From Octopus vulgaris (lineage: Eukaryota), in the NCBI GenBank assembly GCA_951406725.2, contig OX597838.1, forward strand, positions 40,734,001-40,798,000: a stretch of 64,000 nt of DNA. Reading direction: 5' to 3'. Below are positions 3,286-3,487 of this stretch, piece after piece (position 1 is the first letter of the stretch; each line of letters starts with the position of its first letter). The notes under the pieces are model-generated. The model searched no databases. It had not been told where the DNA came from and worked only from the letters and a program-made list of their open reading frames with translations. The translations under genes were made by a program, and so were the position numbers.

Positions 3286-3487
3286 GGGAGAGTTTACGAA
3301 AAAGACAAAAAACGAAGACAGGTGGTGTACAAAACAAACAGATGTATTAGTATAACGCTCATGAATAGAAAAAGTCTTTTACGTTTCAAGCCTACGCTCT
3401 TCTACAGAAAGGGACACAGAAAAAACAAGGAGAGAAACAAGGAGAGAAAAAATGTGTGTAGTGGCTAACGATCTATCATGGCGACTG
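3286..3487 (-). mobile_element. ~190-200 bp HHR-like short element, copy 1
   Basis: Minus strand CTTT-CTGTAGA-A-GAGC-GTAG-GCTT-GAAACGTA-AAAG; (TA)n on both sides; four more copies in the window. Confidence 0.8.

Follow-up and report, generated by a model that had tools for sequence, protein, structure and literature searches.

A6U hammerhead cores in the solo pLTRs and the long copies of a Penelope-like element of Octopus vulgaris

The short repeats of about 195 bp that carry a hammerhead-shaped motif in the genome of Octopus vulgaris are the 3′ end (pLTR) of a Penelope-like element (PLE) of about 4.4 kb, which encodes a reverse transcriptase (RT) and a GIY-YIG endonuclease (EN) and is of the Neptune/Nematis type. 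They are solo pLTRs, with a minimal hammerhead, of an ordinary kind of transposon, and a SINE-like parasite is an unlikely model for them. The canonical A at position 6 of the hammerhead core is replaced by U (A6U, or U6), a substitution that belongs to the autonomous lineage and not to a parasite. We put at roughly 0.7 the probability that the solos are run-off products of the parent element's own enzyme on uncut RNA, with the hammerhead kept as a fold or as a slow switch. The kind of element is itself known; the lineage-wide A6U core is a variant form without a printed report in the literature searched. The interest lies in two lineages that thrive with impaired-looking cores, which makes the function of the PLE hammerhead easy to test.

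The window analysed, a stretch of 64,000 nucleotides from contig OX597838.1, holds five copies, as the initial annotation had noted. Four lie on the reverse strand, at 3286..3487 (copy 1, U6 at 3404), 16334..16523 (copy 2, U6 at 16452), 20049..20236 (copy 3, U6 at 20168) and 61160..61354 (copy 4, U6 at 61278); the fifth, on the forward strand at 63910..64000 (U6 at 63978), is cut by the window end and reaches its full length of 189 bp just beyond it, in the neighbouring stretch (L433:210-398). All five read CTGTAGA and finish in a common 3′ end, CTCTCCC with (TA)n after it, and their 5′ ends agree within about 10 nt. Their other reported properties were likewise borne out: no ATG frame exceeds 35 aa, terminal inverted repeats are absent (matches at 2-4 of 10 end bases), and, in a search for the B-box alone, this pol III pattern was unmatched in 5/5. 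Reversed-pattern controls for the motif gave 0 matches, so the repeat stands far above chance. Copy 1 has (TA)n on both sides and a G-U pair closing stem II, and copy 2 has a single mismatch in stem I. Copy 3 is inserted within a two-part SINE-like repeat, in its internal (TA)n tract; elsewhere the two halves of that repeat adjoin each other (63374-63574, 63633-63819). This agrees with the nesting that had been proposed for the copy. A second occurrence of copy 1's 5′ tip lies upstream, on the other side of a TA tract, at about 3512-3525 of the window, as if the RT had slipped or re-primed; locus L012 is similar.

The motif of copy 1, at 3374..3415 on the reverse strand, has the layout of the minimal type I hammerhead described in PMC4209133. 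Its core is C3 U4 G5 U6 A7 G8 A9 plus an extra A, with C3 at 3407, and the remainder comprises the strands of stem I, stem II (GAGC/GCUY), GAAA, a palindromic CG, U16.1 and A17 at 3380. The canonical core, C3 U4 G5 A6 N7 G8 A9, is thus broken at position 6, which is U, while the other minimal-hammerhead features are present: G12 A13 A14, A15.1-U16.1, H17, stems I and II, the extra base after A9 and a palindromic stem III. In the tally of these features on fetched copies, several are fixed by construction through the search pattern; 100 copies picked by their 3′ flank are free of that constraint. An Rfam scan of the window with E up to 1 gave microsatellite noise and no hammerhead family among the matches listed (150 of 278).

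How general is the substitution? In a genome census with the 28-nt context otherwise fixed, U6 was found 17,296 times, A6 213 times and C or G 473 times (G in 12 of the first 100 listed, by eye); these are counts of exact matches and hence lower bounds. U6 accounts for 96% of the 17,982 matches, so that "invariant", the word used for it at the outset, is too strong, while it clearly predominates genome-wide and a majority of A6 copies was not found. The A6 count is about what point mutation, together with a small older group, would give. One small and more divergent A6 group (L061-L064, L066), with stem II unchanged, may be an ancestral subfamily or a reversion. Among the 100 flank-picked copies, 95 show position 6, which is U in 94 and C in one (by eye). 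Position 7 takes all four letters among U6 copies, the A7 subfamily alone giving 5,901 matches. Among the variants listed for contigs from four public runs, which cover organisms A, B and C, T>A at position 6 never reached 3%; 25 further variant rows lie outside the list. Differences listed within the motif affect position 7, where three alternative letters occur, position 17 (A/U), the bulge of stem I and CpG-type sites, together with one base private to the reference copy. Variation of this kind, at positions 7 and 17 and in the bulge of stem I, suggests that the fold is still maintained, although in the fetched copies part of the core is fixed by the search pattern.

Upstream of the pLTR, the short form continues into coding sequence. 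Four of the first 30 loci extend 5′ past it, and walking upstream along the long copies leads through a low-complexity 3′ region and then into GIY-YIG and RT coding sequence, which overturns the description of the repeat as a non-autonomous element. The RT domain is recognised in L168 (Pfam RVT_1, 31.1 bits against a cut-off of 29.6), and the best protein relatives are RT-bearing and 62-69% identical, the named ones being from cnidarians, molluscs and a shark. For the endonuclease, Pfam gives E 8e-4 and 20 bits in L076, below the cut-off of 22.6, and no match on the corresponding stretch of L159; this stretch aligns through the GIY-YIG motif with two relatives that do pass the cut-off (P0025, P0045), and we counted the C-terminal GIY-YIG as present. 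A CX4CXXC linker precedes the endonuclease in L159 and in all 13 aligned relatives; the RT-EN relatives are 36-53% identical, or 41-53% by the values of the alignment. Such a linker, CX2-5CxxC, marks Neptune and Nematis elements (PMC8557442), and the class given here is the two jointly, by domain features, the outgroups of the EN tree being unnamed sequences.

The clearest long copy, L159, is a partial tandem with a unit of about 4.4 kb and 612-bp direct repeats, the stretch 2448-3059 recurring at 6836-7437 with 87% identity; U6 is present in both repeats, and copy 1 of the window matches both pLTRs at 83-86%. U6 is also found in the 5′ (upstream) pLTR of L158, and L156 and L160 have shorter upstream pLTRs. 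None of the long copies fetched has an intact ORF, all those inspected being broken by stops or frameshifts. Insertion is mostly into (TA)n, with occasional target duplications of 11-15 bp; those at non-microsatellite sites are in L029 and L226 (49 loci scored, with five matches of which three are simple repeats) and, by eye, in L026. L157 (2514-2771) and L158 (2795-3044) have in common about 250 bp of another repeat, joined to the upstream pLTR at an identical point, through either a chimeric source or a duplication.

The short copies do not form a lineage apart from the long ones. A pLTR tree built from 37 short and 28 long copies, together with 4 from the window, has 23 changes of the short label, against 23.2 for shuffled labels. 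The starred branches force at least five changes and include a short and long pair, L223 and L101, supported at 100/99; with only 5 of 66 branches starred, the tree has the shape of a star and little power. The long element has two 5′ variants, and the short copies include both. The tree excludes one separate short clade, though some re-copying of solos would be compatible with its low resolution. The initial annotation had proposed a SINE-like parasite of PLE machinery: that the repeats are PLE-linked, bear minimal hammerheads and are moved by PLE machinery holds, whereas the separate parasite does not, with U6 in the long tandems and short and long copies intermixed.

The length of the copies has a sharp 5′ limit, which we call the wall. 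It was mapped on the first 90 of the 5,901 A7 matches, chosen by the core only, with 5′ ends placed on six long copies; about 8 of the 90 are local duplicates. Relative to an ATGATAG landmark, 40 end at -10..+4, 38 are shorter and 12 longer, all 12 extending more than 20 nt past the landmark, and none ends at -11..-20. The length is therefore not fixed, as had been thought, and yet the ends cluster well beyond what random truncation gives: the rate of 5′ ends per nt is 0.078 in the wall, 0.0039 upstream and 0.0094 downstream, so that the wall is about 20 times sharper than the sequence upstream of it. Random 5′ ends continuing into a long PLE had been named as the outcome that would speak for ordinary truncation, and the result is divided, since 12 of the 90 core-picked copies do extend, with RT and EN upstream, while the ends are not random. 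Summed contig depth, which is not the same as copy number, climbs about 10-35-fold across the wall in all four runs, those of organisms B and C included. The upstream pLTRs of L159 and L164 pass the wall and run more than 330 nt beyond it.

In copy 1 the wall zone (CAGTCGCC) lies at 3478..3487 on the reverse strand. The long copies have TCAGTC there, with one variant, CACTAGTC, and transcription may start at the A of this initiator-like TCAGTC. Copies of a sister family, described below, pile up likewise at a TCA-type motif in different sequence (TCATTC/TCAGTC or TCAGTA), and because they do so the wall is independent of U6. We take these motifs to be similar to the initiator consensus of insects. 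A few loci in the first set had seemed to carry an extra G at the 5′ end that a cap could explain, but among the 14 ends at -10..-6 no more than 2 have it, and the idea was dropped. A 200-kb sample at 20 fixed positions contained three copies only, not enough to serve as a census. At L198-L202, five copies within about 24 kb have the same 5′ junction, a sign that a larger unit with a piece of pLTR was duplicated locally.

Loci that contain the start of the body bear on how the solos arise. Of 30 such loci, 22 have a pLTR directly upstream, eight rows having been dropped for an absent or spurious pLTR alignment; the pLTR starts at -17..-3 in 5 of the 22, inside the wall in 15 and beyond it in 2. 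Ten of the 30 end at body position 159-174, running into (TA)n or (CT)n in five of the six displayed. Stops about 160 nt into the body imply an RNA, derived from a tandem, that was primed near its 5′ end, and these stops point to internal priming. The remaining loci comprise 13 in which body position 250-300 is joined to a short 3′ piece, 2 that stop at 250-288, 4 long ones and 1 inverted. The 13 mini-elements (L288, L289, L292, L294, L297-L300, L303, L305, L307, L310, L312) have varying join points, and either template jumping or tandem insertion could have produced them.

These junctions have a counterpart in biochemistry, on an element of the Poseidon clade, a clade other than that of the U6 element. 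There, priming occurs internally just downstream of the pLTR, sequence downstream is needed, targets are AT-rich, and PLE RNAs with catalytically dead hammerheads insert normally, from uncut RNA, in vitro (PMC11167929). For Penelope itself the promoter and start site lie within the pLTR (PMC2377424). We propose that, in partial tandems of the U6 element, RNA begins at the initiator-like site in the upstream pLTR, as the wall and the initiator consensus would suggest. The protein would bind just downstream of the pLTR and prime internally, either where the pLTR meets the body or at another position some 160 nt further in. Most cDNAs would end at or before the 5′ end of the RNA, giving solos of at most 195 bp, and priming at the far pLTR would give the rarer long, randomly truncated copies. 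Solos, lacking the downstream body, would be dead ends. Cleavage is predicted to be strongly slowed by U6, and what is left of the hammerhead is probably retained either as a fold or as a switch that is slow, aided by protein and dispensable for insertion.

The templates appear to have been uncut in either family. The predicted cut site is crossed by 97 of the 100 U6 copies picked by 3′ flank (by eye), and in the sister family it is intact in 93 of 100, deleted across in 4, with 3 stopping short; that both families cross it implies uncut templates and not an effect of U6. A pile-up of 5′ ends at the cut site is correspondingly absent (at most 1 of 100 U6 copies and 1 of 100 sister copies). Such fossil ends had been considered as a gauge of U6 activity, and were rejected for that use as both families behave alike.

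The sister family is represented in the window by a solo pLTR at 12863..13078 on the reverse strand (C3 at 12998) with canonical U4 and A6. The contrast that had been drawn with this copy is correct in its letters, CTGACGA and stem I GTTT/AAAC against CTTT/AAAG, but misleads as to the family, which is not canonical and has about 70% U4C. Exact-context matches number 8,510 for C4 and 3,679 for U4, with A6 in 96 of the first 100 U4 matches listed; of the 93 sister copies that could be read, 73 have C4 (by eye), and C4 makes up about half of the contig depth in runs X15-X17. The stem I difference is general, with GTTT in 58/63 and AAAC in 32/63 fetched sister copies, and CTTT in 146/167 and AAAG in 133/167 copies of the main subfamily. 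RT/EN sequence 55-64% identical to the U6 protein lies upstream of three sister copies (L341, L346, L348); in L348 the long RT-EN match is about 2.9 kb upstream of the C4 motif. Within the sister family (L316-L340, L346, L348), some C4 subfamilies also carry C17 and a stem I mismatch.

The U6 and sister lineages are each well supported in the EN tree (99/99 and 100/99). In this tree (20 of 22 loci, two having no EN match) and in a pLTR tree of 71 rows, U6 is derived relative to the sister lineage and the outgroups. Eighty related metagenome loci gave 7 motif matches, 5 of them on the ORF strand, and all are U4/A6; since these matches from other organisms are all canonical, A6U and U4C are both derived. 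Two lineages thus spread with cores predicted to cut poorly while the fold was kept. A further step, which we regard as tentative though worth stating, is that each independently fixed a core-damaging change (A6U, at least 17,296; U4C, at least 8,510) and kept amplifying, its hammerhead having become either a structural signal that does not cut or a slow switch gated by protein. If so, the rest of the hammerhead has stayed intact in both lineages, with only normally free positions varying, A6U is a natural core variant not found in the literature searched, and the wall is a fossil map of the element's promoter.

Could the U6 motif be a working ribozyme after all, cleaving as a dimer or with the help of the PLE protein or Mn2+? 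On this question of catalysis, which is separate from the origin of the solos, we think the idea rather doubtful. Changes limited to normally free sites, with no T>A at position 6 listed, are the pattern of variation of a working hammerhead; the natural A6C variant still cleaves, and does so well with Mn2+ (PMC7151607, PMC3088659), and a PLE hammerhead is known to be protein-assisted (PMC11167929). Against this, changes at position 6 lower hammerhead activity (PMC3088659, PMC7151607, PMC9901934), and mutants of the CUGA turn score low in a mutational scan, except for a 3-8 swap (PMC9901934). The 5′ ends are not piled at the cut site, and the sister lineage independently tolerates U4C, a viroid variant known for reduced activity (PMC3088659), which suggests a relaxed need for speed. 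Solo RNAs folded no better than shuffles (z 1.41 and 0.21), and unconstrained cofolding of dimers formed the hammerhead dimer for neither family; we drew on neither result in judging activity. A6U cores are best described as predicted to cut poorly while keeping their fold.

An improbable account of the solos is that the wall is a barrier to RT that set out at the distant 3′ end of a long RNA, or that the solos come from recombination between pLTRs, all else being ordinary 5′ truncation. PLEs are typically heavily 5′-truncated (PMC8557442), solo pLTRs have been proposed to arise by recombination or deletion (PMC3846280), and in our sample 38 of 90 copies stop short of the wall, which upstream pLTRs sometimes overrun. 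On the other side, folding of the solo RNA, up to the wall, predicts no stable structure; the sister family has a similar wall at a TCA-type motif despite its different sequence; and the copies that end at body 159-174 show priming near the upstream pLTR. Long tandems, moreover, are far too few for recombination to have produced most solos, with 250 first-look body-start candidates against at least 5,901 core matches, two different measures whose comparison is indicative only.

More improbable still is a self-propagating SINE-like lineage, in which solo pLTRs transcribed from their own internal promoter are recopied in trans by the PLE protein: 78 of the 90 core-picked copies do end at or inside the wall, the Penelope pLTR contains sequences needed for transcription (PMC2377424), pLTRs alone can possibly move captured DNA in a rotifer (PMC3846280) and putatively non-autonomous PLE derivatives exist (PMC8557442; bioRxiv 10.64898/2026.07.22.740005), but there is no separate short clade, as starred pairs such as L223 and L101 show, the two 5′ variants of the long element are both found among the short copies, U6 is present in the autonomous form, and the solos are without the sequence downstream of the priming site that the one PLE tested requires (PMC11167929). 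An independent 5′ head of the sort that would define a SINE-like non-autonomous element was sought and rejected, the 5′ part being the long element's own sequence, with no B-box match in 5/5.

The motif itself closely resembles the min-HHRs that metazoan PLEs carry in their pLTRs (PMC4209133, by Cervera and De la Pena, 2014), in being type I with a short stem I, in having an extra nucleotide between 9 and 10.1, G10.1-C11.1 and a palindromic 15.2-16.2, and in lying in a pLTR, mostly as dispersed single copies; most min-HHRs are single dispersed motifs there too, probably of truncated PLEs. It differs in its core, CUGU-N-GA against their consensus CUGA-N-GA, the core variant described in that source being U3-A8. 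CUGU occurs three times in the portion of its supplement searched, and the two occurrences displayed are not at core positions. The literature searched, including PMC11014351 and that portion of the supplement, contained no report of a natural A6U, although figures and hammerhead and PLE surveys beyond that search may show A6 variants.

Among PLEs, the nearest likeness is to the EN+ Neptune and Nematis elements (Craig et al. 2021, PMC8557442), which have the RT, the CX2-5CxxC linker and the C-terminal GIY-YIG, partial tandems, microsatellite targets and a hammerhead near the 3′ end; the U6 element is set apart by its fixed U6 core, its very high share of solo pLTRs and its sharp wall. With the Poseidon element PAc of Anolis carolinensis (Frangieh et al. 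2024, PMC11167929) it shares, to judge on our side from genomic copies only, two priming positions downstream of the hammerhead, AT-rich targets and an uncut RNA template. PAc belongs to another clade and has a canonical, protein-assisted hammerhead that overlaps the start codon, and a tail of 30-40 nt, whereas the U6 element has its second stop some 160 nt into the body and an altered core. The hammerheads of phage Bcep176 (A6C) and of a viroid (U4C) have, like those of the octopus, single substitutions at position 6 or 4 and are otherwise intact, with low but detectable activity (PMC3088659, PMC7151607). These are rare isolates, in contrast to the octopus, where U occupies position 6 and has become fixed across a transposon lineage that gives at least 17,296 exact matches. 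Non-LTR retrozymes (PMC7229834; bioRxiv 10.64898/2026.07.22.740005) are likewise short, non-coding, hammerhead-bearing repeats related to pLTRs; theirs are tandem arrays with self-cleaving motifs and circular RNAs, whereas the U6 copies are monomers that match the end of a coding element. Only one direct tandem pair (L024) was met among 30 loci, and arrays of the retrozyme type were not.

Why PLEs keep hammerheads is stated to be unclear (PMC8557442), and in one in vitro study insertion did not depend on cleavage (PMC11167929). The octopus lineages offer a natural test of this role, with canonical, A6U and U4C cores in related lineages, two of which have amplified to many thousands of copies. 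Searches that demand CUGA miss most of the hammerhead-type motifs of the A6U and U4C lineages.

The window also contains hammerhead-like CTGANGA...GAAA motifs of different families, at 27422 (+), 27043 (-), 49842 (+), 17071 (+) and 6424 (+), of which those at 27422 and 27043 form an inverted pair. Two near-perfect inverted repeats lie at 44453-45124 (267-nt arms) and 27801-28375 (234-nt arms), the latter with a CTGATGA motif in each arm. Decayed remnants of PLE coding sequence are present at 33360-33644 (+) and 37555-38577 (-), with about 52% and 35% translated identity, respectively, to the U6 element.
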